IMG/VR virus record: IMGVR_UViG_2609459854_000002
Origin: a virus
Taxonomy: Duplodnaviria > Heunggongvirae > Uroviricota > Caudoviricetes
Direction: 5' to 3' (one strand)
Length of the DNA stretch: 42,050 nucleotides
The notes beneath the pieces were generated by a model. It did not search any database. It was not told where the DNA came from and was given only the letters and a program-made list of their open reading frames with translations. Position numbers and translations under genes: made by a program. This document shows positions 2,119-42,050 of the stretch, piece by piece (within the stretch, counting starts at the first letter, position 1; every line of letters begins with the position of its first letter).

Positions 2119-3915
2119 TTAGAACTCCTTCACATCTGCGCCAGAAGACACGCTCCAGATCGAAACAGGCGACCCGTTTACACCTATTAACCTTGCTTTC
2201 AACCCATTTCCGCTTGCTCTTGGTACGGTTAAATTTGCAACAGATGGATTTATAGCCCAATCTCCACCATTTAATATGACACTCATTTCAACTACGCCAC
2301 CATTATCAATATCTATTATAGGTGTTTGCACTACCGGGCTTTGTTGATCAATTGGCAGAAAGCCATTGACAATAATAGATGGTCTGAATGATGGGTTTCC
2401 CTGAACGCTAACACGAAGTTGCCCACCCTTAACAAATTCTGTTGCACAAGTATTCATGACAATGCAATACGGATTTACAAAATCAAATGCATAGCAAATT
2501 GACTCCCCATCCATTGGCGTGCAGTTTTCAGCAGTACAATTGGTCATGGTAGTATATTGCATTCCTGACATTCTAAATGACAACTGGTAACCGTTAACCT
2601 GAACAAGGCGCATATCCATAGAAGTGCCTATTACTTTTATTTGACCATCCCTAAAATCTTCAAATAAAACTCCAGCATATCCTTTCCCTGGATATTGTGG
2701 GAAACCGACCATTTCCATTACGCCAGAGAACGGCACATAAGAGAAGCATCCGATATAAGCACATTCAAAAATTGACTGTCTGATAACTGGTGCTGCTGAT
2801 TTTCCTAAAAACAGTCCGTAATAATTTCTATAAGAATCTACGTTTTCTTGTGTTAAGCCAAGCCTTCTAAACATGCAGTTTTCAACTCTACCGTTAACAC
2901 AAAATGAACTCATTGAGTTATCTGTTAGATCCCATTGCTTTGGTATAAAAGCACATAATGCATCCACCTGAAGAATTACTTCTCCATTTTTTGTGAGATC
3001 TATTTTGTCATTTGTTGTTTTATAAAAAACTGTCGCTTCAGCCTTTCCCTGTCCTCTAATTCCCATATTGTCATAAATTGGGATTGTTTTTGATGTATTT
3101 ATGTTTCCAGCAGGAGCCTCTAGAATGCATTTGTTTGAGCGGGCAAAGTTAGTTGCAAGAGTTATAGCTGTTGCGTTATCTGTGACTCCGTCAGGTTTCA
3201 CCCCCCAAAATTGCATGTCGTAAGTGGTAAAATTAATTCGTCTCCATACCATCGTTCCAGTTTCTGGCTTGATTACAATTCCACCATCATCAGCCCACGC
3301 CTGAATGTTATCAACAGACTCGAAAAAGCCGCCACCAAGGTGGTTTTCAGCATGTGTAGTGCTAGCTGCTGATGCTACGTATACAATCTGCCCCGCCTCC
3401 TCTGGAACACAGGAGCGAAGCTCTGAAAGATTGAGAAAGCGGCCAATAGCGTTAAATCCTGTTTTATCAATTAATGAATCATGTGTAGCTTTCAAGATCT
3501 CCAGCTCAATCTTTACGGTTGTGCCTCCATAACCAACCAGAGATGCGCCATCAGGGCCAGAAAGCTCAGCCCTTAACTGGTCTGGAGAATATTTCAGTAG
3601 ATCAGGATAATAGAATTGTTGTGCGCCATACGCATCATATACAGCCATGGAGTGATTCTGTACAGTTACGAACTTGGCAATCTGTCCGTTATATACCGGA
3701 TATCCAGCAGCGTTAATGATGATTGGTTGAGAAACAGGAACGTGCGAGCCGTCTTCGTTCTCTACATAAACCTGAATCTGGTTTTCTGGATTTACCGGGT
3801 CAGTGTCAACCTGACCGATATAAATTTTGCCATTGGCTACGGCTTTAAAAGAACGCGCCATAGTGAAGAGTTGCGAAGGCATCGATACGATCACATTGGC
3901 TGTAATGTCTGTCAT
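2119..3915 (-). CDS. Tailspike protein (P22 gp9-like head-binding domain, distinct receptor-binding body)
   Basis: 598-aa ORF; first ~110 residues ([59 protein letters not shown]...) closely match the P22 tailspike N-terminus as I recall it; the remainder does not match the P22 endorhamnosidase domain. Confidence 0.85.
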
Positions 3916-4509: not shown

Positions 4510-5478
4510 TTAGATTTCTGGTTTCATTCTTCCGAAAACCTTTTCTATTCCTTTTTCGTATTCTTCTCTTGTCTCACTCATCGCTGCGACACCAAGAAGC
4601 TTACCGATATGCTGACGCAAAGCCTTGACACCAATTTCAGAAAGGAACAGATGCAACTTATCAGATTGTTTTCCGTTCTCGTCTCGGCTGGCTCGAATCT
4701 GTTCAAGGATTTTACCTTTACTCTTTGCTAGCGGGGTGTATATCTGCATGTTGGTTAGCTGCCCAAAACGAATAGGCCGTCCTTTCTCTGGCCTATTCAG
4801 GCCGTACAGTCGATACCACTCCTCGTATAGCTCATCTGGAAATTCCTTTTCATATTGACGAGCCTCTTCACGAACAAACGCTTTGAACTCGTCAATGACA
4901 GCCTGAACTTCTGGACGATAACCAGCAAGCGCATACGCAACCCCCTTAATTCCCGCCTTAGCGGAGGCATTAATAAGTCTCTGTGCTGCGGCGGCTGCCT
5001 TTAACCGTGATTGTGGTAGATCGTCATTATCTTTGGCTTCTATTAGTGCCCTACCAATATCAACAATTGCTGTAATGTCATAACCTAACGCTTGATGAAC
5101 GGTTTTAGACTTCGAAGTAAGTTGAAATTTATAGGGATTTTCCATTTTTCGCTGCAATTCTAGATCTCGGTATTTGCTCATATACTGAGCGCCAAGCAGT
5201 TGATCTAAATCCCTGGCATGTTCACCAATCCCTAGCAACTGAGATAATCCAGTTTTCGTAACAACGACAGTTTTCGACTCGTCATCCAGTACATAACATT
5301 CAGCATCAATGCCAAAATCATCTAAAAAGTTACCACGATGAGTTGCCCTGAGAATCTTACTTTTCCATCTTGCAGCAGCTGCTTTCTTTGCTATTTCAGA
5401 ACGCTGCTCTTTAGTCAGCGACTTTGCGCGAGCGATCCCGCCCTTAGCTTTCCCTTCGCCACTTTTCTTTTCAGTCAT
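4510..5478 (-). CDS. Hypothetical protein with lysine/alanine-rich N-terminal region (possibly P63C-domain-like; unverified)
   Basis: ORF in track 4510..5541; first ATG in frame at 5478 ([38 protein letters not shown]...). Occupies the position of the arc-ant genes of P22 immI between gene 16 and tailspike. Confidence 0.5.
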
Positions 5479-31781: not shown

Positions 31782-32432
31782 ATGAAAACTCAATTGATGG
31801 GAGAGCGCATTCGCGCTCGGAGAAAAGAACTCAAGATCAGGCAGGCCGCACTTGGAAAGATGGTCGGCGTGTCTAATGTTGCCATATCTCAGTGGGAACG
31901 CTCTGAGACAGAGCCAAATGGAGAGAATCTTCTCGCCCTGGCTAATGCGTTGAAGTGTTCCCCTGACTATCTGATGAAAGGAGAGGAAAGTCTTTCAAAC
32001 ATTGCCTATCACAGTAGGCATGATCCAAGAGGGTCATACCCTCTGATTAGCTGGGTGAGCGCAGGATGCTGGATGGAAGCTGTAGAACCATATCATAAGC
32101 GTGCAATAGATAACTGGTACGATACAACCGTAGACTGTTCAGAAGATTCGTTTTGGTTGGACGTGAAGGGAGACTCAATGACGGCTCCGGCCGGTCTCAG
32201 TATCCCTGAAGGAATGATAATACTCGTCGATCCTGAAGTAGAGCCGCGTAACGGGAAACTGGTAGTTGCAAAGCTCGAAGGAGAAAACGAGGCAACTTTC
32301 AAGAAGTTAGTTATTGATGCAGGCAGGAAGTTTCTAAAACCACTTAACCCACAATATCCGATGATCGAGATCAACGGAAACTGCAAAATCATCGGCGTAG
32401 TTGTCGATGCAAAACTAGCAAACCTTCCATAA
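31782..32432 (+). CDS. c2: Prophage repressor (P22 C2-like, LexA-type autocleaving)
   Basis: 216 aa; N-terminal HTH and C-terminal ...GDSMTAPAGLSIPEGMIILVDPEVEPRNGKLVVAKLEGENEATFKKL... closely match P22 C2 as recalled. Confidence 0.9.
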   Translation: MKTQLMGERIRARRKELKIRQAALGKMVGVSNVAISQWERSETEPNGENLLALANALKCSPDYLMKGEESLSNIAYHSRHDPRGSYPLISWVSAGCWMEAVEPYHKRAIDNWYDTTVDCSEDSFWLDVKGDSMTAPAGLSIPEGMIILVDPEVEPRNGKLVVAKLEGENEATFKKLVIDAGRKFLKPLNPQYPMIEINGNCKIIGVVVDAKLANLP

Positions 32433-32456
32433 GGGGGCATTCGCCCCTTTTTTTTA
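32433..32456 (+). terminator. Rho-independent terminator after c2
   Basis: GGGGGC attc GCCCC followed by TTTTTTTT immediately after the c2 stop. Confidence 0.6.
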
Positions 32457-32479
32457 TTTCCTTTAAAAATCAAAGCCAA

Positions 32480-32560
32480 ACTTAAGTTACGAAAGAAAAT
32501 TTAAGTTTTCTTCAAAAATACTCTTGACCATTAATTAAAGAGATCTTAAATTTAAGCCAT
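32480..32560 (+). promoter_or_regulatory. Candidate OL / pL region
   Basis: TTGACC (32524..32529), 17-bp spacer, TAAATT (32547..32552) overlapped by operator half-sites (ATTTAAG, CTTAAAT). Confidence 0.4.
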
Positions 32561-32597
32561 CAGCAGGACGCTGGTAGCCAAACGGAACAGATTGGCA

Positions 32598-32639
32598 GGC
32601 TCTTTAACATTGATGGGATTGTCCCGCCGAAATGCGGGA
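32598..32639 (+). promoter_or_regulatory. Candidate nutL (boxA-like plus boxB-like hairpin)
   Basis: GGCTCTTTAACA resembles boxA (CGCTCTTA-type); followed 12 nt later by hairpin TCCCGC cgaaat GCGGGA. Confidence 0.4.
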
Positions 32640-32953
32640 ACCAAAGAGTAGTTGGCTTTGGGGTGACGTGAAGTGCAGCTGCACGACGGCAACCGGAAGA
32701 TAAGCACCCGGCGCGTCACCTACAAAGTCAATTCCATAGGCGTTATGCAGCCGCCACCATATTCAAGAAAGCTGCACAAGAGGTAGGAGGATTTATGTGA
32801 ATACTTACATTCAGTTGAGAGATTAATTAAATAGAACTGATCGAGCAGAGCCCGTGAAGGCTCATAAATGCTCTTCCATCCCCGTCTAATTGGCGGGGAA
32901 GGAAACCACTTTGTAATAAAAAAAATTCCAAAGTTGTTTCATCGGAGGTCAAC

Positions 32954-33259
32954 ATGACAGTAGTCATTACATATCTGGCTGACGATAACGCCAGAAATCG
33001 CCGCAGAGCACGCAGACAGGCTCAACGTGAACAGGCAATGCAAGAGCAGCGACTGGCGCGAAAAATTGCGCTAAAGCTCTCTGGTTGCGTCAGAGCAGAT
33101 AAAGCAGCATCACTCGGAAGCCTTCGCTGCAAGAAGGCAGAAGAAGTCGAGCGTAAACAGAACCGTATTTACTACCGCAAGCCACGCAGTGAAATGGGGG
33201 TGACTTGTGTTGGCCGCCAGAAGCAACGCGGAAAATCAATTCCAGCTTATTACGATTGA
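32954..33259 (+). CDS. N-like transcription antiterminator
   Basis: 101 aa with arginine-rich N-terminal motif (NARNRRRARRQAQREQ); C-terminal half resembles phage 21 N as recalled; first gene downstream of candidate pL/nutL. Confidence 0.65.
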   Translation: MTVVITYLADDNARNRRRARRQAQREQAMQEQRLARKIALKLSGCVRADKAASLGSLRCKKAEEVERKQNRIYYRKPRSEMGVTCVGRQKQRGKSIPAYYD

Positions 33260-33267
33260 GGTGAGAT

Positions 33268-33519
33268 ATGGAATTTCATGAAAGTGCGATTTGTGATTTT
33301 CGCGCTAACGCAAATTCAGTAAAACCACAGCCAATTGCAGTTCTTTTTAAAACAATGGGTGCGTGGGCTGTTTTATGCTTCGCCGCTGATGACACTGACG
33401 CAAGAATGGCAATAGGCCAAGAGATGGAGATGGACCCGACAAACGATGAATTCATAATTTATGGCGCTCCATCTAATTACTTACTTGATACCTGCAACAT
33501 TTACAACAAGGCTGCCTGA
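33268..33519 (+). CDS. Hypothetical protein in ral position (possible Ral-like)
   Basis: 83-aa ORF immediately after N; C-terminus ...NKAA is the same as lambda Ral as recalled, otherwise not recognisable. Confidence 0.35.
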   Translation: MEFHESAICDFRANANSVKPQPIAVLFKTMGAWAVLCFAADDTDARMAIGQEMEMDPTNDEFIIYGAPSNYLLDTCNIYNKAA

Positions 33520-33655
33520 TGGTGGCCTTTATTTTTGGCATAAACAACAGAATAAATACTGCACTGTGTATTCATTCCAACGAGTGAATACACGGAGCAA
33601 TGTCGCTCGTAACTAAACAGGAGCCGACTTGTTCTGATTATTTGAAATCTTCTTT

Positions 33656-33685
33656 GCCCTCCAGTGTGAGGGCCTTTTTATATGC
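33656..33685 (+). terminator. Terminator-like hairpin (tL-type)
   Basis: GCCCTC cagtgt GAGGGC followed by CTTTTTAT, upstream of cIII. Confidence 0.45.
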
Positions 33686-33742
33686 ATACCAATAACGCTT
33701 CACTCGAGGCGTTTTTAGTTATGCATAAATAAGGATCACACC

Positions 33743-33868
33743 ATGCAATATGCCATTGCAGGGTGGCCTGTTGCTGGCTGCCCTTCCGAATCTTTACTTG
33801 AACGAATCACCCGTAAATTACGTGACGGATGGAAAAGAGTTGAGGTCTTATTATGCGCAATGAAATAG
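33743..33868 (+). CDS. cIII: CIII-like protein (FtsH inhibitor), C-terminally divergent
   Basis: MQYAIAGWPVAGCPSESLLERITRKLRDGWKR matches the lambda CIII N-terminus as recalled; 41 codons, not in track because under 60 aa. Confidence 0.7.
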   Translation: MQYAIAGWPVAGCPSESLLERITRKLRDGWKRVEVLLCAMK

Positions 33869-34005
33869 CCATTAATCACCAGATGCTTCGTGCGGCACAA
33901 AACAAAGCAGTAATAGCCAGATTTATTGGTGATTCAAAAATGTGGCTTGAAGCAAATAAAGCGATGAAATCAGCTATCAACCTTCCGTGGTATCGCAGGA
34001 AATGA
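33853..34005 (+). CDS. Kil-like small protein (tentative)
   Basis: 49-codon ORF overlapping the cIII end; ...AVIARFIGDSKMWLEANKAM... loosely resembles lambda Kil as recalled; position matches. Confidence 0.4.
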   Translation: MRNEIAINHQMLRAAQNKAVIARFIGDSKMWLEANKAMKSAINLPWYRRK

Positions 34006-34259
34006 GTTTTACAGATAACTGGTCAGACGAAGAATTCATTCGTCAGATGAAAGAATTAATCGGTAACGAAGGAGATATTCATGTCACTTGCAACCACAGT
34101 GAAGGAGAGCAAGTTACAGAGACGCATGTACACGCAGAAAGCTCTCTGGTATCGCCATCATGGTGACCGCGAAGGAATGCGGGTATGCCTTAATTTGTCC
34201 CGAGTCGAAGTATTAAATCAGCGTTATTTCCTTGGGCCGCGTCCATTCTGAGGTGAATT

Positions 34260-34967
34260 ATGGATTTGAATAAATTCGATGAGCCATTCAGCCCTGAAGA
34301 TATCGAATGGCGAATACAGCAAAGCGGTAAAACACGCGATAGCAAGGTGTGGGCTATGGTGCTGGCTTATGTCACGAACCGGGCAATCATGAAGCGCCTG
34401 GACGATGTTTGCGGCAAAGCAGGATGGCGCAATGAATACCGCGATATTCCCAACAACGGCGGAGTTGAATGCGGCATATCAATCAAGATTGATTCCGAAT
34501 GGGTAACCAAATGGGATGCTGCTGAAAACACGCAGGTAGAAGCCGTCAAAGGCGGTCGTTCCGGTGCAATGAAGCGCGCTGCCGTTCAGTGGGGAATCGG
34601 TCGGTATCTGTATAACCTTGAGGAAGGTTTTGCACAAACATCTCTCGATAAAAAGCAGGGATGGCACAGGGCAAAACTGAAGGATGGAACAGGATTTTAC
34701 TGGCTCCCTCCATCGCTGCCGGGATGGGCAATCCCAGCATCAGATAACAAACCATCACCAGAAAATACCAACCAGAAATCTCCATCGGTTGACTGCGAAC
34801 AAATCCTGAAAGACTTCAGCGATTATGCGTCAACAGAAACTGACAAGAAAAAACTCATCGAGCGTTATCAGCGTGACTGGCAATTAATGGCTGGCAACGA
34901 GGAAGCGCAGGCTAAATGCGTTCAGGTAATGAACATCAGAGTTAACGAACTAAAACAGGCGGCATAA
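34260..34967 (+). CDS. Rad52-family single-strand annealing protein
   Basis: 235 aa; motif ...KRAAVQWGIGRYLYNLE... is characteristic of Rad52/Sak-type phage recombinases (from memory). Confidence 0.65.
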   Translation: MDLNKFDEPFSPEDIEWRIQQSGKTRDSKVWAMVLAYVTNRAIMKRLDDVCGKAGWRNEYRDIPNNGGVECGISIKIDSEWVTKWDAAENTQVEAVKGGRSGAMKRAAVQWGIGRYLYNLEEGFAQTSLDKKQGWHRAKLKDGTGFYWLPPSLPGWAIPASDNKPSPENTNQKSPSVDCEQILKDFSDYASTETDKKKLIERYQRDWQLMAGNEEAQAKCVQVMNIRVNELKQAA

Positions 34968-35441
34968 ATGGGAAGTAGAGGCGTAAATAAGGTGATCATT
35001 ATTGGTCGCCTTGGGCATGATCCAGAAATCAGATATTCACCATCAGGAACGGCATTTGCAAACCTTACAGTTGCTACGTCAGAACAATGGCGTGATAAGC
35101 AAACTGGAGAGCAAAAGGAGCAGACGGAGTGGCACCGTGTGGTAATGAGCGGGAAACTGGCAGAAATTGCCAGCGAATATCTGCGAAAAGGCTCTGAGGT
35201 TTATCTTGAAGGCAAATTGCGGACAAGAAAATGGCAGGATCAAAGCGGACAGGATAGGTTCACTACCGAAGTCATCGTGGGCGTTGGTGGAACCATGCAA
35301 ATGCTTGGTGGCAAGCAAGGAGGCAATGAACAGTCTTCACCTCAGCGAAATAACGGTCATCAACAAAGACAGCAACCTCAGCAGCATGGAAATCACAGCG
35401 AACCACCTATGAACTTCGACGATTCGGATATTCCGTTCTAG
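34968..35441 (+). CDS. ssb: Single-stranded DNA-binding protein
   Basis: OB-fold region near-identical to E. coli SSB as recalled and acidic tail ...[11 protein letters not shown]. Confidence 0.85.
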
Positions 35442-35450
35442 GAGCTGAAT

Positions 35451-35930
35451 ATGAAAATCTGCTCAAGATGCCATCAACAGAAGGAAGAAAGGGACTTTCA
35501 AATCAGAAGAGCATCCAGAGATGGATTAACTGCCGCTTGCCGGGCTTGCCTGGCTGAATATGACAAAGAGCGCGCGGGATTGCCACATCGAGTATCAGCA
35601 AGGAGAGAATATCAATCATCGGAACGCGGCAGAGAACGGTGTAACGCAGCCAAAAAGCGGTTCATTCAGAGCAACCCATGGAAAAGAAAAGCCCACATCA
35701 TCGTGGGTAATTTTTTGCGCGACGGTAAGCTAATCCGACCACCACAATGTGAGTGCTGCGGATCAGAATGTAAACCACAGGCGCACCACTGCGACTACAG
35801 CAAACCAACCGATGTGATGTGGCTCTGCAAGTCATGTCATGTCGAGTGGCACAAACATAACAAACCTATCTACCCAGACGAGGAGCCAGTAACTCTCCCC
35901 TTCCCTCGTCACGCTATTCACGCAATTTAA
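35451..35930 (+). CDS. Cys-rich protein with HNH-like C-terminal motif
   Basis: N-terminal CSRC...CRAC zinc-ribbon-like pairs; C-terminal CECCGSECKPQAHHCDYSKPTDVMWLCKSCHVEWH resembles an HNH nuclease core. Confidence 0.45.
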   Translation: MKICSRCHQQKEERDFQIRRASRDGLTAACRACLAEYDKERAGLPHRVSARREYQSSERGRERCNAAKKRFIQSNPWKRKAHIIVGNFLRDGKLIRPPQCECCGSECKPQAHHCDYSKPTDVMWLCKSCHVEWHKHNKPIYPDEEPVTLPFPRHAIHAI

Positions 35931-35938
35931 GGACTTAC

Positions 35939-36487
35939 ATGAATCACTTAATGGTTGACCTTGAAACAATGGGCAACGGGCCATACGCGCCAGTTATTTC
36001 TATTGGGGCGGTATTCTTTGACCCGAATACCGGAGAAACAGGAGAAGAGTTCTCGGTAAATATCTCGCTTGAGTCATCAATGCGATATCGGGCGCGTCCT
36101 GACGCTTCAACGATTTTATGGTGGATGGAACAGAGTGAAGAAGCCAGAAAATCGCTAACCAGCAACACTCAAGAGCTTTCAACGGCTCTTTCATGGTTAT
36201 CTGAATTCATCATAAAGAACGCTAACCACAAATTCGTTCAGGTTTGGGGGAATGGAGCATCATTTGACTGCGTTATTCTCCGAAACAGTTATTCGCTGAC
36301 AGGGCAGCCAGTTCCGTGGCAGTGGTGGAATGAACGAGACGTAAGAACAATCGTCGAGCTTGGAAAGGTAATAGGATTCGACCCTAAGCGAGATATGCCA
36401 TTCAAAGGAACTCGCCACAACGCGCTTGATGATGCCATCCACCAAACCAAATACGTTTCAGCGATCTGGAAAAAGTTAGCTAAATAA
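35939..36487 (+). CDS. DEDDh-type 3'-5' exonuclease
   Basis: MVDLETMG (Exo I-like D-x-E), WGNGASFD, and HNALDDA motifs. Confidence 0.6.
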   Translation: MNHLMVDLETMGNGPYAPVISIGAVFFDPNTGETGEEFSVNISLESSMRYRARPDASTILWWMEQSEEARKSLTSNTQELSTALSWLSEFIIKNANHKFVQVWGNGASFDCVILRNSYSLTGQPVPWQWWNERDVRTIVELGKVIGFDPKRDMPFKGTRHNALDDAIHQTKYVSAIWKKLAK

Positions 36488-36503
36488 TCAACAGGAGAAA
36501 AAC

Positions 36504-36800
36504 ATGCCAGCGCCTTTGTATGGTGAGGATGACGCGCGCCGCTGTTCCGGCAATTCCGTATCGGAGGTGCTGGATAAATTCAGAAAAAACTACGATCGGA
36601 TAATGTCGCTACCGCAGGAAACGAAAGAGGAAAAGGAATTTCGCCACTGTATATGGCTTGCAGAGAAAGAAGAACGCGAGCGAATTTACCAGACATCAAT
36701 CCGACCATTCCGCAAAGCCACATATACCCACTTCCCTGAATATATCGACCCGCGCCTGCGTAATTACCGCTCACGCTATGGCGCTATCAGTAATGACTGA
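36504..36800 (+). CDS. Hypothetical protein
   Basis: 98-codon ORF in early-left operon orientation. Confidence 0.4.
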
Positions 36801-36974
36801 GGAATTTACCATGAGAGGACTTGCATACAATCCCGGCATTCTTCCGGCAGAAATGATTATTCGCCAACGCGTAAAGCCAATGCCATCGAGAGAGGAATTG
36901 CTTAAGAGAAATTCTTTTCCATCAGTGAATCAAAACAAATATCTGAATGCGATGTGGCGCAAAGGAGGCAACCA

Positions 36975-37229
36975 GTGAGTAATTCAGCACGACTACAGCT
37001 TGGTTTTTCACCGCTATCAAAAACTATCATGCTGGCAAAAATGCGCGATGTTGAAGGTGGACGTATGCGCGTTGGCAATGATCCAGGTCGTGATGTTACC
37101 AATGAGGCTGCTCAATTGGTGTGGCAACTGGTCATGGCTGAAGGTGGTGAGATAGTGTGGGAGCTGGATGATGGTTCTCGCATGGTGTTGAAGGCAGAAA
37201 AGCAGGAGGCAACCAGTGAGCAAGATTGA
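36975..37229 (+). CDS. Hypothetical protein (GTG start after AGGAGG)
   Basis: ORF 36954..37229 in track; start placed at GTG 36975 preceded by AAAGGAGG. Confidence 0.35.
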
Positions 37230-37935
37230 TTATCAGGCACTGCGTGAAAAGGCAGAGAAAGCAACGTGTGGTGTATGGTCGATCGAATATGGAGAGAGTC
37301 GATTTGATGGTGATGATGCGTTAATTCATCGTGAAGTTGCTGGATATATTCCCATTTGCAGAATTGAAGGAGCGCATCCAGAAAGCGGTTTCGATGAAGA
37401 TTTCCAAATGGAACAGCAGGCCAATGCTGAATTCATCGCCGCAGCCAATCCGGCTACCGTGCTGACTCTGCTGGACGATCTGGAAGCAGCAAAAAAGCGC
37501 ATTGCAGAACTGGAAGACGAACCTGTAAGCCAAACTTACAAGTTGCCAGTTAATACACCTTGCCAAGATGCGCCAGCCCATATCTGGCTGCAAACAGCTG
37601 GAGTATGGCCAGAAGATGGCGAGTTAAGCGAATTAACGTGGTGCAGCCACAATCAGCACCATGATGACACACTATATGTTCGAGCTGACCTTGTGAATGG
37701 CAACTATCCGGTAACTCCGGATGGTTGGATAAGCTGTAGTGATCGAATGCCGGAAGACACCAAAATGTTACTGGCATTTAGTCAAGGTGAAATCGTGGCC
37801 GCATATTGGAACTGGGTTGTAAATCCAATTGATTACAAAAAATATAGAGCTTTCACGTATTTATCAGGAAATATCTTGGATGACGTAACTCACTGGATGC
37901 CGCTACCAGAACCGCCTCAGGAGGTTAAGCCGTGA
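37216..37935 (+). CDS. Hypothetical protein (Ea22-like N-terminus / DUF551-like C-terminus, tentative)
   Basis: 239 aa; GTG start in repeated junction cassette; C-terminal ...THWMPLPEPP resembles DUF551 proteins (from memory). Confidence 0.45.
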   Translation: MSKIDYQALREKAEKATCGVWSIEYGESRFDGDDALIHREVAGYIPICRIEGAHPESGFDEDFQMEQQANAEFIAAANPATVLTLLDDLEAAKKRIAELEDEPVSQTYKLPVNTPCQDAPAHIWLQTAGVWPEDGELSELTWCSHNQHHDDTLYVRADLVNGNYPVTPDGWISCSDRMPEDTKMLLAFSQGEIVAAYWNWVVNPIDYKKYRAFTYLSGNILDDVTHWMPLPEPPQEVKP

Positions 37936-38052
37936 TTACAGCACTAGCATGGCATTTCAGTGAAAGCATTTATGGCTGGATGCTGGCAATTACAGCAATT
38001 CAGGATTTGGCAATCACATCGTTTATTTTCAGCCTGTGCAGGAGGTGAAGCC

Positions 38053-39365: not shown

Positions 39366-39584
39366 ATGTACTTGACACTTCAGGAGTGGAACGCACGCCA
39401 GCGACGTCCAAGAAGCCTTGAAACAGTTCGTCGATGGGTACGCGAGTGCAAGATATTCCCTCCTCCGGTTAAGGATGGAAGAGAGTATCTGTTCCACGAA
39501 TCAGCGGTAAAGGTTGACTTAAATCGACCAGTAACAGGTAGCCTTTTGAAGAGGATCAGAAATGGGAAGAAGGCGAAGTCATGA
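39366..39584 (+). CDS. xis: Excisionase
   Basis: MYLTLQEWNARQRRPRSLETVRRWVRECKIFPPPVKDGREYLFHESAVKVDLNRPVTGSLLKRIRNGKKAKS, essentially lambda Xis as recalled. Confidence 0.9.
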   Translation: MYLTLQEWNARQRRPRSLETVRRWVRECKIFPPPVKDGREYLFHESAVKVDLNRPVTGSLLKRIRNGKKAKS

Positions 39585-40632
39585 GCGCCGGGATTTACCC
39601 CCTAACCTTTATATAAGAAACAATGGATATTACTGCTACAGGGACCCAAGGACGGGTAAAGAGTTCGGATTAGGCAGAGACAGGAGGATAGCAATTACTG
39701 AAGCAATACAGGCAAACATTGAGTTATTTTCAGGACACAAACACAAGCCTCTGACAGCAAGAATCAACAGTGATAATTCTGTTACGCTACATTCATGGCT
39801 TGATCGCTACGAAAAAATACTCGCCAGCAGAGGAATCAAGCAGAAGACACTCATAAATTACATGAGCAAAATTAAAGCAATAAGGAGGGGTCTGCCTGAT
39901 GCTCCACTTGAAGACATCACCACAAAAGAAATTGCGGCAATGCTTAATGGATACATAGACGAGGGCAAGGCGGCATCAGCCAAGTTAATCAGATCAACAC
40001 TGAGCGATGCATTCCGAGAGGCAATAGCTGAAGGCCATATAACAACAAACCCGGTCGCTGCCACTCGCGCAGCAAAATCAGAGGTAAGGAGATCAAGGCT
40101 TACGGCTGACGAATACCTGAAAATTTATCAAGCAGCAGAATCATCACCATGTTGGCTAAGACTTGCAATGGAACTGGCTGTTGTTACCGGGCAGAGAGTT
40201 GGTGATTTATGCGAAATGAAGTGGTCTGATATCGTAGATGGATATCTTTATGTCGAGCAAAGCAAAACAGGCGTAAAAATTGCCATCCCAACAGCATTGC
40301 ATGTTGATGCTCTCGGAATATCAATGAAGGAAACACTTGATAAATGCAAAGAGATTCTTGGCGGAGAAACCATAATTGCATCTACTCGTCGCGAACCGCT
40401 TTCATCCGGCACAGTATCAAGGTATTTTATGCGCGCACGAAAAGCATCAGGTCTTTCCTTCGAAGGGGATCCGCCTACCTTTCACGAGTTGCGCAGTTTG
40501 TCTGCAAGACTCTATGAGAAGCAGATAAGCGATAAGTTTGCTCAACATCTTCTCGGGCATAAGTCGGACACCATGGCATCACAGTATCGTGATGACAGAG
40601 GCAGGGAGTGGGACAAAATTGAAATCAAATAA
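39562..40632 (+). CDS. int: Tyrosine integrase (lambda Int-like)
   Basis: 356 aa, same length as lambda Int; N-terminus MGRRRSHERRDLPPNLYIRNNGYYCYRDPRTGKEFGLGRDRRIAITEAIQAN matches as recalled; overlaps xis as in lambda. Confidence 0.95.
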   Translation: MGRRRSHERRDLPPNLYIRNNGYYCYRDPRTGKEFGLGRDRRIAITEAIQANIELFSGHKHKPLTARINSDNSVTLHSWLDRYEKILASRGIKQKTLINYMSKIKAIRRGLPDAPLEDITTKEIAAMLNGYIDEGKAASAKLIRSTLSDAFREAIAEGHITTNPVAATRAAKSEVRRSRLTADEYLKIYQAAESSPCWLRLAMELAVVTGQRVGDLCEMKWSDIVDGYLYVEQSKTGVKIAIPTALHVDALGISMKETLDKCKEILGGETIIASTRREPLSSGTVSRYFMRARKASGLSFEGDPPTFHELRSLSARLYEKQISDKFAQHLLGHKSDTMASQYRDDRGREWDKIEIK

Positions 40633-40705: not shown

Positions 40706-40720
40706 TTAGTATAAAAAAGC
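40706..40720. repeat. attL core (B-O-P' junction); 15-bp lambda-type core
   Basis: TTAGTATAAAAAAGC on + strand, identical to the copy at 568..582; phage side (40633..40705) resembles the lambda P' arm, host side continues AGGCTTCA (lambda B arm-like). Confidence 0.85.
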
Positions 40721-40766: not shown

Positions 40767-42050
40767 GTGAACACATTTTCAGTTTCCCGTCTGGCGCTGG
40801 CATTGGCTTTTGGCGTGACGCTGACCGCCTGTAGCTCAACCCCGCCCGATCAACGTCCTTCTGATCAAACCGCGCCTGGTACCTCTTCTCGCCCGATTCT
40901 GTCGGCAAAAGAAGCGCAGAATTTCGATGCTCAACACTATTTTGCATCCCTGACACCAGGTGCTGCAGCGTGGAATCCTTCCCCGATTACCCTGCCTGCG
41001 CAACCTGACTTTGTTGTCGGCCCGGCGGGCACTCAAGGTGTAACGCATACCACGATTCAGGCGGCGGTAGATGCGGCAATTATCAAGCGTACCAACAAGC
41101 GCCAGTATATTGCCGTGATGCCTGGTGAGTATCAGGGAACGGTATATGTCCCTGCCGCTCCGGGTGGAATTACTCTGTACGGTACAGGTGAAAAACCGAT
41201 TGATGTGAAGATTGGGCTTTCCCTTGATGGTGGCATGAGCCCTGCCGACTGGCGTCACGACGTCAACCCGCGCGGCAAATATATGCCAGGTAAACCAGCG
41301 TGGTATATGTACGATAGCTGCCAGAGCAAACGCAGCGACAGTATCGGTGTTCTCTGCTCTGCGGTCTTCTGGTCACAAAACAATGGCCTGCAACTGCAAA
41401 ATCTGACCATCGAAAACACGCTGGGCGATAGCGTAGATGCAGGTAACCATCCGGCGGTGGCACTGCGTACTGATGGTGACCAGGTACAGATTAACAACGT
41501 TAACATTCTCGGTCGTCAGAACACCTTCTTTGTCACCAACAGCGGTGTGCAGAACCGTCTGGAAACCAACCGTCAGCCGCGTACGCTGGTGACCAACAGC
41601 TACATTGAAGGGGATGTGGATATCGTTTCTGGTCGCGGCGCAGTGGTGTTCGATAACACCGAATTCCGCGTGGTGAACTCACGTACTCAGCAAGAAGCGT
41701 ATGTGTTTGCACCGGCTACGCTGTCCAACATTTACTACGGTTTCCTCGCCGTAAACAGCCGTTTCAATGCTTTCGGTGATGGTGTGGCGCAACTGGGCCG
41801 CTCGCTGGATGTTGATGCCAATACCAACGGTCAGGTGGTGATCCGTGATAGCGCCATCAACGAAGGTTTTAACACGGCTAAACCGTGGGCCGATGCGGTG
41901 ATCTCTAATCGTCCGTTTGCGGGTAATACCGGCAGCGTAGATGATAACGACGAAATACAGCGCAATCTGAATGACACTAACTACAACCGCATGTGGGAAT
42001 ACAATAACCGCGGCGTGGGTAGTAAAGTGGTTGCAGAGGCGAAGAAGTAA
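40767..42050 (+). CDS. ybhC: YbhC-like pectinesterase-family lipoprotein (host gene flanking the prophage)
   Basis: 427-codon ORF beginning at GTG with lipoprotein signal (…LALAFGVTLTACSS…); recognised from memory as E. coli YbhC; complete, ends at window end. Confidence 0.85.
   Translation: MNTFSVSRLALALAFGVTLTACSSTPPDQRPSDQTAPGTSSRPILSAKEAQNFDAQHYFASLTPGAAAWNPSPITLPAQPDFVVGPAGTQGVTHTTIQAAVDAAIIKRTNKRQYIAVMPGEYQGTVYVPAAPGGITLYGTGEKPIDVKIGLSLDGGMSPADWRHDVNPRGKYMPGKPAWYMYDSCQSKRSDSIGVLCSAVFWSQNNGLQLQNLTIENTLGDSVDAGNHPAVALRTDGDQVQINNVNILGRQNTFFVTNSGVQNRLETNRQPRTLVTNSYIEGDVDIVSGRGAVVFDNTEFRVVNSRTQQEAYVFAPATLSNIYYGFLAVNSRFNAFGDGVAQLGRSLDVDANTNGQVVIRDSAINEGFNTAKPWADAVISNRPFAGNTGSVDDNDEIQRNLNDTNYNRMWEYNNRGVGSKVVAEAKK

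Follow-up and report, generated by a model that had tools for sequence, protein, structure and literature searches.

A P22/Sf6-type recombination module with a constant core and two optional nuclease cassettes in the early-left operon of a P22-like prophage

The recombination genes at positions 34260-36487 of the window (the whole 42,050-nucleotide stretch that was analysed, IMG/VR record IMGVR_UViG_2609459854_000002) belong to an already known module, the P22/Sf6-type prophage recombination module. In our preferred reading, to which we assign a probability of about 0.7, they form a Rec module of the Sf6/epsilon34/ES18 type, located in an early-left operon that is antiterminated by N and belongs to a P22-like prophage, and built from a core and two separate cassettes. 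Annealase, SSB and Abc2 make up the constant core of the module; its two nuclease genes, one HNH-like and one encoding a DexA-like exonuclease, are optional single-gene inserts between ssb and abc2, and neither is an obligate partner.

Locus and operon setting

The ORF list places four ORFs with ATG starts in series on the + strand, exactly where the sequence-only reading had put them, encoding an annealase of 235 residues (34260..34967), an SSB of 157 residues (34968..35441), a zinc-ribbon and HNH-like protein of 159 residues (cassette 1, 35451..35930) and a DexA-like DEDDh exonuclease of 182 residues (cassette 2, 35939..36487). They are separated by gaps of 0, 9 and 8 nt, the last three are each preceded by a Shine-Dalgarno-like sequence, and their order is real, far beyond chance. 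The boundaries 34260-36487 are nevertheless too narrow, as the module extends into abc2 (36504..36800, + strand), 16 nt beyond the exonuclease gene, and probably starts with two small + strand ORFs at 33987-34251. These candidate genes, of 59 residues (33987..34166, phrog_2123) and 56 residues (34081..34251, phrog_1723), both carry the label 'recombinase' and overlap in different frames, the second ending 8 nt short of the annealase gene. The 59-residue ORF occupies the P22 arf position and precedes the annealase in the majority of related loci, and the equivalent of the 56-residue ORF in Escherichia phage CurroJimenez_Bas106 is annotated 'recombinase protein'. An identification of these ORFs with P22 Arf was rejected: the 59-residue product has no significant similarity to Arf, and a 7-residue match ('SDEEFI') was all that the comparison returned.

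The host element is a P22-like prophage at lambda attB, and the module lies in its pL operon. A pL-like promoter candidate at 32524..32552 (+ strand), identified by consensus scan only, follows the cI terminator (32431-32450) as on the P22 map and would drive the whole operon, comprising N (32954-33259), cIII, kil and the Rec module. The same scan, directed at sigma-70-like sites and thus one that weak promoters could escape, found no promoter-like site within 34260-36800, and over 7.2 kb it returned 3 sites against 11.8 expected from shuffles. The tL-like terminators were located only upstream of cIII, the sole Rfam match at 32400-38000 in permissive mode was the lambda cIII thermoregulator, and the prophage contains no Chi site, as is also the case for P22 and Sf6. 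All + strand ORFs of at least 110 residues at 32.4-39.5 kb were profiled and none encodes an Exo/RecE-type nuclease (YqaJ/Exo, RecE) or Gam.

The constant core: annealase, SSB and Abc2

The sequence-only reading had proposed profile searches of each protein; the annealase, SSB and exonuclease all found matches, and the HNH-like protein found none in Pfam or NCBIfam. The N-terminal domain of the annealase (residues 4-136, nt 34269-34667, + strand) matches PF04098 Rad52_Rad22 (E=5.4e-26, 91.8 bits, cut-off 20.3), as do all 120 listed homologs of the 4005 found. In addition, a Foldseek search with its AF2 model (pLDDT 87) gave yeast Mgm101 or human RAD52 as each of the best 16 PDB matches (probability 0.98-1.00, E-values of 1e-4 to 7e-3, modest TM-scores of 0.25-0.5), which together with the Pfam match confirms the naming of this protein as a Rad52-like annealase. 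RAD52 was not reached among PDB sequences by phmmer or by a narrow family profile, and the relationship is visible only through Pfam and fold search. The C-terminal 79 residues (157-235, nt 34728-34964, + strand) are 63% identical to residues 134-205 of P22 Erf, and the protein is thus chimeric, a Rad52-fold domain at its N-terminus being joined to a C-terminal one of P22 Erf type. The Erf-type N-terminal annealing domain is absent (no Pfam ERF match, and BLAST and tblastn align Erf residues 134-205 only); the 'Erf-like' label given by PHROG and GenBank traces to the common C-terminal domain. Based on the Rad52 fold, the N-terminal domain would be expected to form rings and to anneal ssDNA.

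The SSB, which is phage-encoded but of bacterial type, was likewise correctly called, scoring above the cut-offs of both PF00436 (E=1.1e-38, 131.9 bits, cut-off 26) and TIGR00621 (181 bits, cut-off 53.95), with a layout of a single OB fold, a Gln/Gly-rich linker and an acidic C-terminal tip. Beyond the exonuclease gene, the product of 36504-36800 matches PF11043 (E=2.9e-60) and phrog_656 and is 91% identical to P22 Abc2 over 98 residues; this identity and a conserved IRP68F motif, with P68, mark it as an ortholog of the Abc2 whose N-terminal helices bind RecC. We found no tblastn match to abc1 or arf better than E=0.7 in the window, and unrelated small ORFs fill the arf position. The claim that the operon replaces P22 erf/abc therefore fails, given the strength of the Abc2 match and the Erf-type C-terminus of the annealase; what is missing from the P22 set is the Erf N-terminal domain, abc1 and arf. 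Modules with Abc2 are believed to rely on host RecBCD as their resection nuclease (PMC9836394), and since Abc2 is present, resection here would, by analogy, probably be carried out by Abc2-co-opted host RecBCD.

To define which genes are constant we used 76 complete IMG/VR loci with an annealase at least 99% identical to that of the window; most are near-identical E. coli prophages, so that the counts that follow sample relatives and not independent events. All 76 contain abc2. The arrangement SAP-SSB-ABC2, where SAP is the annealase, was found in 36 loci, with the exonuclease (EXO) added in 23, the HNH-like gene (HNH) in 14 and both in 3, i.e., the exonuclease is present in 26/76 and the HNH-like gene in 17/76. 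The 3 loci with both compare with ~5.8 expected under independence, and the exonuclease assorts independently of the HNH-like gene. Among 5426 complete E. coli genomes the annealase was found in 397, the exonuclease in 173 and the HNH-like gene in 99.

The two nuclease cassettes

The exonuclease matches PF16473 (E=1.8e-72, 243 bits, cut-off 27) and PDB entries 8KEL/8KEN (E=5e-14), of which 8KEL is the structure of T4 DexA, and is 33% identical to T4 DexA and 37% identical to a prophage exonuclease resembling EcD. DNA is the substrate of DexA and EcD; the 'exoribonuclease' name of PF16473 comes from Rv2179c. The predicted catalytic residues D7, E9, D110, H160 and D165 do not vary across an alignment of 7 sequences, where they align with DexA D7/E9/D119/H186/D191 (a legend in PMC12153337 prints 'E12' for DexA E9, but in the DexA sequence the E of the D-x-E motif is residue 9). 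These residues and the PF16473 match uphold the earlier family call, a DEDDh (DnaQ-fold) 3'-5' exonuclease, and it is from the family that polarity and substrate are predicted. T82 aligns with the tetramer contact D90 of DexA and with EcD A78, and W130 aligns with DexA W152; DexA D169 sits in an insertion that has no counterpart in the window protein. The insert has clean edges, starting directly after a TAA stop and ending before the abc2 RBS.

The sequence-only reading paired this exonuclease with the annealase, and the idea, spelled out, is that it serves as the annealase's dedicated resection partner in a reversed-polarity 'SynExo' pair, in which the 3' ends of dsDNA would be chewed to give 5' ssDNA tails that are coated by SSB and annealed, the recessed 3'-OH then priming fill-in. 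Chew-back in the 3'-5' direction followed by annealing works for DNA assembly both in vitro and in vivo, so reversed polarity is mechanistically feasible; the genes are tightly packed in one operon, the catalytic residues are all intact, and 80 loci carrying the close exonuclease lineage (≥89% identity) have it embedded, essentially without exception, in SAP-SSB-(HNH)-EXO-ABC2. Moreover, a survey of lambdoid Rec modules deems such DnaQ-like genes likely members of the module and the epsilon34 gene 'very likely' a legitimate one (PMC12315714). On the other hand, the exonuclease is missing from 50/76 loci that share the (≥99% identical) annealase together with SSB and Abc2, and also from Sf6, HK75, IME10 and ECP1; the Abc2 that is present is thought to bring RecBCD as the nuclease; the same survey states that DnaQ-family 3'-5' exonucleases 'usually inhibit homologous recombination' (PMC12315714); and linkage to annealases is lost in more distant homologs. 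Homologs of the exonuclease occur in 1893 phage records and in such unrelated contexts as T4 dexA, P2-like prophages, replication modules and positions next to int. A functional pair, as the original wording implies, is not supported by this pattern of a gene present in 26/76 loci with homologs in unrelated settings, and we regard the dedicated-partner reading as improbable. A different role, also improbable in our view, is that of a dimeric weapon of the HREX/EcD type, sparing unmodified DNA and degrading the cytosine-modified (e.g., 5hmC) DNA of T-even-like superinfectors, with the position in the Rec module being incidental. The precedent is the E. coli DexA homolog EcD, which degrades T4 DNA, spares unmodified dsDNA and protects against T4 (PMC12153337); the EcD-like P2-prophage protein is 37% identical to the window exonuclease, the catalytic residues and W130 are kept, the DexA D90 position holds T82 and not Asp, and, much like a moron, the gene is an optional cassette. 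However, it lies deep in the repressor-controlled pL operon without a promoter-like site of its own and should be silent in a lysogen (we considered an internal promoter for expression in lysogens and rejected it, finding no consensus-like site within the module). Further counts against it are that DexA D169 has no clear equivalent, that PADLOC gives only a weak generic DEDDh match (E=4e-4), that EcD belongs to a different, P2-prophage-borne lineage, and that the HREX evidence comes from one study with plasmid-borne expression. That the window protein is EcD itself was rejected: the EcD primers give MIDTET... and ...TIPETY, and the nearest protein recovered, an EcD-like one from P2-like prophage contigs that fits the published primer and carries A78, is only 37% identical. 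The DexA-like cassette may still be an anti-modified-DNA weapon used in lytic growth.

For the HNH-like protein, which matches nothing in Pfam or NCBIfam, only 2 of 34 family members searched against Pfam touched PF01844 (E=0.68), and a family profile run against PDB sequences found nothing. A sequence-profile proof of HNH membership thus failed, leaving evidence from motif, a weak fold match and homology, on which the earlier description as an HNH-like Cys-rich protein can be retained. The protein matches phrog_2340 'endonuclease' and has a conserved CxxC...HH...CxxCHxxxH motif, with an N-terminal CxxC...CxxC (nt 35460-35549, + strand) and a C100xxC103...H112H113...C126xxC129H130xxxH134 core (nt 35748-35852, + strand). 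H112, H113, H130 and H134 are invariant in the 34 sequences, and the expected Asn is replaced by D121, some members having E there (roles assigned by pattern only). Fold searches gave weak but consistent matches to the beta-beta-alpha-Me (His-Me finger) fold. A full-length homolog is I-KsaII (35% identity, E=2e-29), encoded by an intron that splits polA in Staphylococcus phage A5W, a relative of phage K; the family, I-KsaII included, is spread sporadically over 559 phage records (Vibrio, Staphylococcus, Bacillus, Erwinia and others). Since I-KsaII is encoded by an intron and the gene shares a 15-codon tail with the ssb of relatives that lack it, we considered a group I intron in ssb, and rejected this as there is no Rfam intron and the whole insertion is taken up by the ORF and the 9 nt in front of it.

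The HNH insertion invariably begins at the stop codon of ssb and ends 15 codons short of the HNH stop, and fixed differences crowd into the last ~64 nt of ssb. This decay of linkage fits co-conversion but is not diagnostic of it, as any recombining insertion polymorphism could produce the same. Disrupted distinct alleles numbered 3/30 for HNH, 3/63 for EXO and 0/117 for SAP, numbers too small to tell HNH from EXO; by locus, a cruder count, HNH is disrupted in 8/31. The likeliest identity of the gene is that of a free-standing mobile element of the homing-endonuclease type, from the I-KsaII family, lodged exactly at the 3' end of ssb. It would be quite another matter if the protein were a true Rec-module nuclease that cuts or nicks phage or host DNA to make ends for RecBCD-Abc2 and the annealase, or that resolves branched intermediates, a role for which one could cite the neat fit of the gene within the module, the 27/30 intact alleles, weak PHROG matches to endonuclease VII-like families and the opinion that the HNH gene of ES18 is a likely Rec-module member (PMC12315714). 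We consider this unlikely, given that 59/76 loci with the same core do without the gene, that its relatives are intron-encoded or scattered in unrelated phage contexts, and that exact insertion at the ssb stop with linked flanking substitutions is the trace expected of a homing-type insertion.

The presence or absence of the HNH cassette also decides whether the C-terminal tip of SSB is free or masked. In the window the insertion puts a stop codon exactly after the IPF of SSB, which ends ...NFDDSDIPF with a free canonical tip (nt 35412-35438); in relatives without the cassette the tip, there DDDIPF, runs on into 15 extra residues, and the last 15 codons of the HNH gene (35886-35930) are common to that SSB tail. 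Bacterial SSBs recruit partner proteins through their C-terminal Phe carboxylate, which the 15-residue extension should mask. The HNH gene could conceivably, and we advance this as a speculation with the odds against it, be an active homing endonuclease that targets the 3' end of phage ssb and switches SSB between a masked form and a canonical hub. If true, an HNH element could rewire the partners of a phage SSB (the annealase C-domain, ExoI, RecQ, PriA and others).

Proposed working and comparison with known systems

Starting from gene identities, domain chimerism, conserved catalytic motifs and patterns of presence and absence, and drawing on P22 by analogy, we infer the following working for the module. 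Abc2 would bind RecC and convert host RecBCD, otherwise destructive to linear phage DNA, into the helicase and 5'-strand nuclease of the module, and the RecBCD-Abc2 complex would make 3' ssDNA that is possibly passed to the phage annealase instead of RecA. SSB would coat the ssDNA and help the annealase, which would pair complementary strands; this pairing would serve circularisation by terminal redundancy, recombination-dependent replication and mosaic exchange. The nucleases would be separately acquired single-gene cassettes between ssb and abc2 and not required partners. The DexA-like exonuclease is most likely an accessory that processes the 3' ends of phage DNA intermediates, or those of competitor or host DNA, and would modulate the core pathway, not define it; yet it may contribute materially to recombination, because its close lineage is always found in the module and because of the published view of the epsilon34 gene (PMC12315714).

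As found, the module matters little. GenBank has contained modules of this type since Sf6 (2004) and epsilon34 (2008), and a 2025 survey covering 325 lambdoid phages assigned them a class; a cultured phage and hundreds of E. coli genomes carry the module at ~98% identity. In practice it is useful as a natural experiment, with the same annealase/SSB/Abc2 core accompanied by neither, either or both nucleases. This variation bears on the effect of DnaQ-like 3'-5' exonucleases, be it positive, negative or nil, on recombination by an annealase, on whether RecBCD modified by Abc2 really works for a Rad52-fold annealase, and on the need of a phage SSB for an exposed C-terminal tip. The module is also a candidate for recombineering in RecBCD-proficient cells.

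The closest known counterpart is that of Bas106 (PQ850599), which has the same five-gene order including abc2 at 98% nucleotide identity over 2.7 kb and, upstream, likewise has cIII, kil and the small 'recombinase' ORF; apart from Bas106 having been isolated as a free phage and the window being a prophage at lambda attB, there is no substantive difference. Shigella phage Sf6 genes 28-25, reportedly described by Casjens et al. 2004, encode annealase (gp28), SSB (gp27), gp26 and Abc2 (gp25) at 98% nucleotide identity. Sf6 gp26 is 100% identical to the HNH-like protein of the window, but Sf6 lacks the exonuclease cassette and its Abc2 gene directly follows that of gp26. Conversely, Salmonella phage epsilon34 genes 36-33 (~89% nucleotide identity) encode an annealase with an Erf-type C-terminus, SSB, a DnaQ-like 3'-5' nuclease and Abc2, and unlike the window epsilon34 has no HNH-like gene. 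The adjacency of annealase and exonuclease was already remarked as unusual in epsilon34 (PMC2629481) and appears in the catalogue of lambdoid Rec modules, which combine SSB, nuclease (DnaQ-like and HNH nucleases included), SAP and anti-RecBCD functions (PMC12315714), the two accounts dating from 2008 and 2025. The 'ES18 class' of these modules (anti-RecBCD, SSB, nuclease and SAP) accounts for 25/325 panel phages, and the survey lists only three phages with two same-function genes per module, an HNH and DnaQ-like pair not being among them (PMC12315714). The double-nuclease arrangement of the window is therefore a rare combination (3/76 annealase-anchored and 16/80 exonuclease-anchored loci).

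The individual nucleases have counterparts further afield. T4 DexA and E. coli EcD (PMC12153337) share the PF16473/DEDDh fold and catalytic pentad of the window exonuclease, a smaller protein than DexA without its insertions (the D169 segment among them); the window gene lies in a lambdoid pL Rec module, dexA in the T4 early region and the EcD-like gene in the early operon of a P2-like prophage. I-KsaII of Staphylococcus phage K/A5W has the zinc-ribbon CxxC pairs and HH...CxxCH...H core that are also found in the window protein, but its gene lies in a group I intron interrupting the polymerase gene polA, whereas that of the window is free-standing and adjoins ssb, with no Rfam intron or other RNA family over it. 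At the level of the whole module, P22 erf-abc1-abc2 (arf) occupies the same operon position after kil/cIII and shares Abc2 (91%) and Erf residues 134-205 (63%) with the window, which differs in having a Rad52/Sak-type and not an Erf N-terminal annealing domain and in lacking abc1 and arf; SSB, with or without the nucleases, sits at the place of P22 abc1. Lambda Red (Exo-Beta-Gam) and RecET have the same overall role and operon position, and their annealases belong to the same Rad52 structural superfamily. Unlike these systems, the window module has no 5'-3' Exo/RecE-type nuclease and no Gam, RecBCD would be modified by Abc2 and not blocked, and the sole exonuclease that the module encodes is an optional one of a 3'-5' family.

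Prophage setting and the core of the module

The prophage in the window is P22-like and roughly 40 kb long, with a tailspike gene encoding a head-binding domain (2119-3915, - strand) and a lambda-type integrase gene (39562-40632). Exact copies of the lambda att core, 15 bp of sequence TTAGTATAAAAAAGC (reverse complement, GCTTTTTTATACTAA), stand at 568-582 and 40706-40720, and in the host flanks on either side of the prophage (1-477 and 40767-42050) are genes resembling ybhB, for a PEBP, and ybhC, for a pectinesterase; the prophage therefore sits at the lambda attachment site, and this P22-like phage uses lambda attB with a lambda-type integrase. Adjoining the tailspike gene is an acyltransferase-3 family gene of low GC (0.30; 939-2048, - strand) that resembles the oac-type moron of Sf6 and would modify the O antigen. 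The early-left operon begins with a cI-like repressor gene (31782-32432, +) and a terminator, followed by a pL-like site (32524-32552, +; a consensus match only), an N-like antiterminator gene (32954-33259, +), tL-like terminators, cIII (33743-33868, +) and kil (33853-34005, +). An Rfam thermoregulator RNA (RF01804, lambda cIII thermoregulator, 33730-33788, +; 80.3 bits against a gathering threshold of 50, E = 7e-19) overlaps the cIII start. After kil come two small overlapping ORFs, the four genes of the sequence-only reading, abc2, a DUF7446 gene and an Ead/Ea22-DUF551 gene, running towards int. Our ORF calls matched the four claimed genes exactly: annealase (34260-34967), SSB (34968-35441), HNH-like protein (35451-35930) and exonuclease (35939-36487), all on the + strand, with spacers of 0, 9 and 8 nt and ribosome-binding sites ahead of the last three.

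The 235-residue annealase was correctly called Rad52-like (PF04098, 91.8 bits against a threshold of 20.3), and the 16 best PDB matches to its AlphaFold2 model (pLDDT 87) were to Mgm101 and human RAD52 only. Its residues 157-235 share 63% identity with the C-terminus of P22 Erf (its residues 134-205), and sequence comparison found no match in it to the Erf N-terminal domain. Judged by these alignments the protein is a chimera of a Rad52-type part and an Erf-type C-terminal part, a domain swap that accounts for its "Erf-like" database label and was described for epsilon34 gene 36 (PMC2629481). In the linker joining these two parts (34644-34751, residues 129-164), for which AlphaFold2 predicted three short strands, GWHRAKLKDGTGFYWLPPSLPGWAIP weakly resembles the yeast PRP40 WW domain (E about 0.07-0.1), a likeness that may be due to chance.

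Sixteen nucleotides past the exonuclease gene starts abc2 (36504-36800, +), whose product matches PF11043 (E = 2.9e-60) and is 91% identical to P22 Abc2, with Pro68 kept. The sequence-only reading had placed this module in the operon instead of P22 erf/abc, which is contradicted both by this protein and by the Erf-type C-terminus of the annealase; as Abc2 is present downstream, the module is a variant of the P22 erf/abc system rather than an alternative to it. It differs from P22 in that the annealing domain is swapped for a Rad52-type one and in that ssb, with or without nuclease genes, stands at the abc1 position; searches of the window with the P22 proteins found neither abc1 nor arf. P22 Abc2 binds RecC and, reading each mechanistic step across by homology, the window protein would hijack RecBCD as proposed for P22, so that the host enzyme would make ssDNA and load the phage annealase. 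On neither strand of the prophage (568-40720) does a Chi site (GCTGGTGG) occur, the single one in the window being at position 179 in the host flank. P22 and Sf6 likewise have no Chi site, and the class of Abc2-encoding phages, which the window prophage fits, has few (PMC12315714).

The nuclease genes among related loci

For comparison we fetched from IMG/VR the best 80 of 137 exonuclease-anchored loci and the best 80 of 440 annealase-anchored loci, these being closely related E. coli prophages rather than independent samples. In the former set the close exonuclease lineage (at least 89% identity) essentially always had the order annealase-SSB-(HNH)-exonuclease-abc2. The latter set gave 76 complete loci with an annealase at least 99% identical to that of the window, and all 76 had SSB and Abc2, whereas neither nuclease was present in 36, the exonuclease only in 23, the HNH-like gene only in 14 and both in 3. 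As about 5.8 loci with both would be expected, the two cassettes assort roughly independently. Across 5426 complete E. coli genomes, annealase DNA was found in 397, the exonuclease in 173 and the HNH-like gene in 99. The same variation is seen among cultured phages: Sf6 has only the HNH-like gene, epsilon34, g341c, mEp235 and mEpX2 have only the exonuclease, HK75, IME10 and ECP1 have neither, and both genes are present in Bas106, which is 98% identical to the window here. The edges of the exonuclease cassette are sharp, the gene with its own ribosome-binding site being inserted directly after a TAA stop and ahead of the abc2 ribosome-binding site.

The pairing of exonuclease with annealase on which the sequence-only reading had dwelt is thus no obligate tie, many loci with an annealase at least 99% identical lacking the exonuclease. 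Beyond the close lineage we found DexA-like exonucleases in 1893 phage records, in contexts unrelated to annealases: as T4 dexA, in early operons of P2-like prophages, between helicase and primase or adjoining DNA polymerase, adjoining int, and as the C-terminal domain of an 823-residue protein beside xis/int. Based on these contexts, and on the absence of the nucleases from many loci with the same core, we regard the nucleases as accessories; the constant machine of annealase, SSB and Abc2, together with host RecBCD, is presumably sufficient, and an exonuclease-annealase pair of reversed polarity is possible as an auxiliary route rather than as the defining mechanism. This last protein, an "exonuclease" of phage HannyBb (L195, 584-3055), holds in its C-terminal domain the nearest relative of the exonuclease beyond the lineage, at 57% identity, and in PHROGs 2082, 20376 and 255 the domain is likewise fused to larger proteins.

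The HNH-like gene and the SSB C-terminus

The Cys-rich 159-residue protein matched no Pfam or NCBIfam model. An alignment of 34 relatives showed C100, H112, H113, D115, H130 and H134 to be invariant and C4, C7, C30, C33, C103, C126 and C129 nearly so, and in its predicted structure (pLDDT 92.9) a beta-strand ends with H112-H113 and is followed by a second strand and a helix bearing C129-H130...H134. The most telling result on this protein is that it is homologous over its full length (35% identity, E = 2e-29) to the endonuclease I-KsaII, which is encoded by a group I intron in polA of Staphylococcus phage K-like viruses (PMC5618024). With this homology and the conserved Cys/His residues the HNH-like label is reasonable, but tests of family membership were mixed, the domain databases giving no match and the fold evidence being weak. 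Homologs are sporadic in 559 phage records (Vibrio, Staphylococcus, Bacillus, Erwinia and others); among relatives the gene is present or absent with exact boundaries, nearly fixed substitutions in the flanking ssb are confined to its last ~64 nt, and decayed copies make up 3 of 30 distinct alleles (8 of 31 loci were disrupted by a simple ORF-length test), e.g., some carry a premature TAG at codon 10 (CAA CAG to CAA TAG; about 5195-5200 in the related locus L085). Based on the intron-encoded relative, sporadic spread, exact boundaries, linked ssb substitutions and decayed copies, the gene bears the hallmarks of a homing-type mobile gene; the authors of a 2025 survey were equally cautious on HNH genes in Rec modules (PMC12315714). 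The window ORF is intact, with a ribosome-binding site. Sf6 and Bas106 carry an annotation for it; RefSeq E. coli genomes do not ("None" for the 5 listed of 102 matching records), and strain EC9 has an annotation gap where it stands. Rare fusion proteins made by in-frame deletions in E. coli and metagenome records (P0011, P0014, P0053 and P0024) show ongoing cassette decay in prophages: either SSB runs into the C-terminal half of the HNH-like protein, or the N-terminus of the latter runs into the C-terminal half of the exonuclease. In P0014 the junction is a shared "IVG".

The call of the 157-residue protein as an SSB stood, of bacterial type (PF00436 and TIGR00621), and in the window it ends with the canonical tip NFDDSDIPF (35412-35441). 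Among 124 non-redundant related loci, the C-terminus of SSB depends on the presence of the HNH cassette. Where the cassette is present the ssb stop directly follows ...DDSDIPF (31/31 loci); where it is absent the ORF reads ...DDDIPF-APVTLPFPRHAIHAI-stop (92/93), its 3' region containing ...GACGACGATATACCCTTTGCACCAGTAAC.... The 15 codons beyond IPF are those that end the HNH ORF when the cassette is present (35886-35930 in the window). As this tail is identical among divergent HNH alleles only about 51% identical overall, its behavior is that of a piece of the insertion site, not of the endonuclease; in the HNH-like protein it is of low confidence (pLDDT <50, residues 152-159). In E. coli SSB, the free C-terminal Phe is what partner proteins recognize, so in the phage SSB the 15 added residues would presumably mask the canonical interaction tip, and the HNH cassette would decide which form of the tip, masked or canonical, the protein carries.

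The DexA-like exonuclease and known modules

The 182-residue protein is, as claimed, a DEDDh exonuclease, of the DexA / Rv2179c-like family (PF16473, E = 1.8e-72). It is 33% identical to T4 DexA (solved structure 8KEL), and its invariant residues D7, E9, D110, H160 and D165 line up with the DexA catalytic residues. We favor a possible role in trimming the 3' ends or flaps of intermediates that arise in phage recombination and replication, since its gene has stayed inside the module in this lineage. Alternatively, it may act like the E. coli DexA homolog EcD, which is reported to destroy 5hmC-containing T4 DNA and spare unmodified DNA (PMC12153337). An EcD-like protein is 37% identical to the window exonuclease, which keeps the Trp equivalent to DexA W152 and has Thr at the position of the DexA tetramer-contact Asp90 and EcD Ala78; however, it lacks the DexA D169 segment, and a consensus scan gave no separate promoter-like site for its gene, which lies inside the repressed pL operon. 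A protein matching the published EcD primer (MIDTET..., Ala78) is encoded in P2-like prophage contigs (L188, 6401-6991, - strand, and L167, L172, L182, L183 and L185), where its neighbors are a Dam-like methylase and a large protein of replication; the "bacterial" HREX gene that PMC12153337 describes therefore seems to reside in a prophage.

Modules of this kind were annotated in Sf6 in 2004, and the epsilon34 nuclease gene was termed "unusual in this context" in 2008 (PMC2629481). In the 2025 survey of 325 lambdoid phages, a Rec module is defined by which of four functions it combines (SSB, nuclease, annealase (SAP) and anti-RecBCD), and 25 phages fall in the class that has all four (PMC12315714). 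Given these records and that of Bas106, the finding is already known. The two nuclease cassettes together are the one slightly unusual feature of the window module: the survey names just three phages with two same-function genes per module, the HNH and DnaQ-like pair not being among them (PMC12315714), and the double-nuclease arrangement is also found in Bas106 and a minority of prophages.
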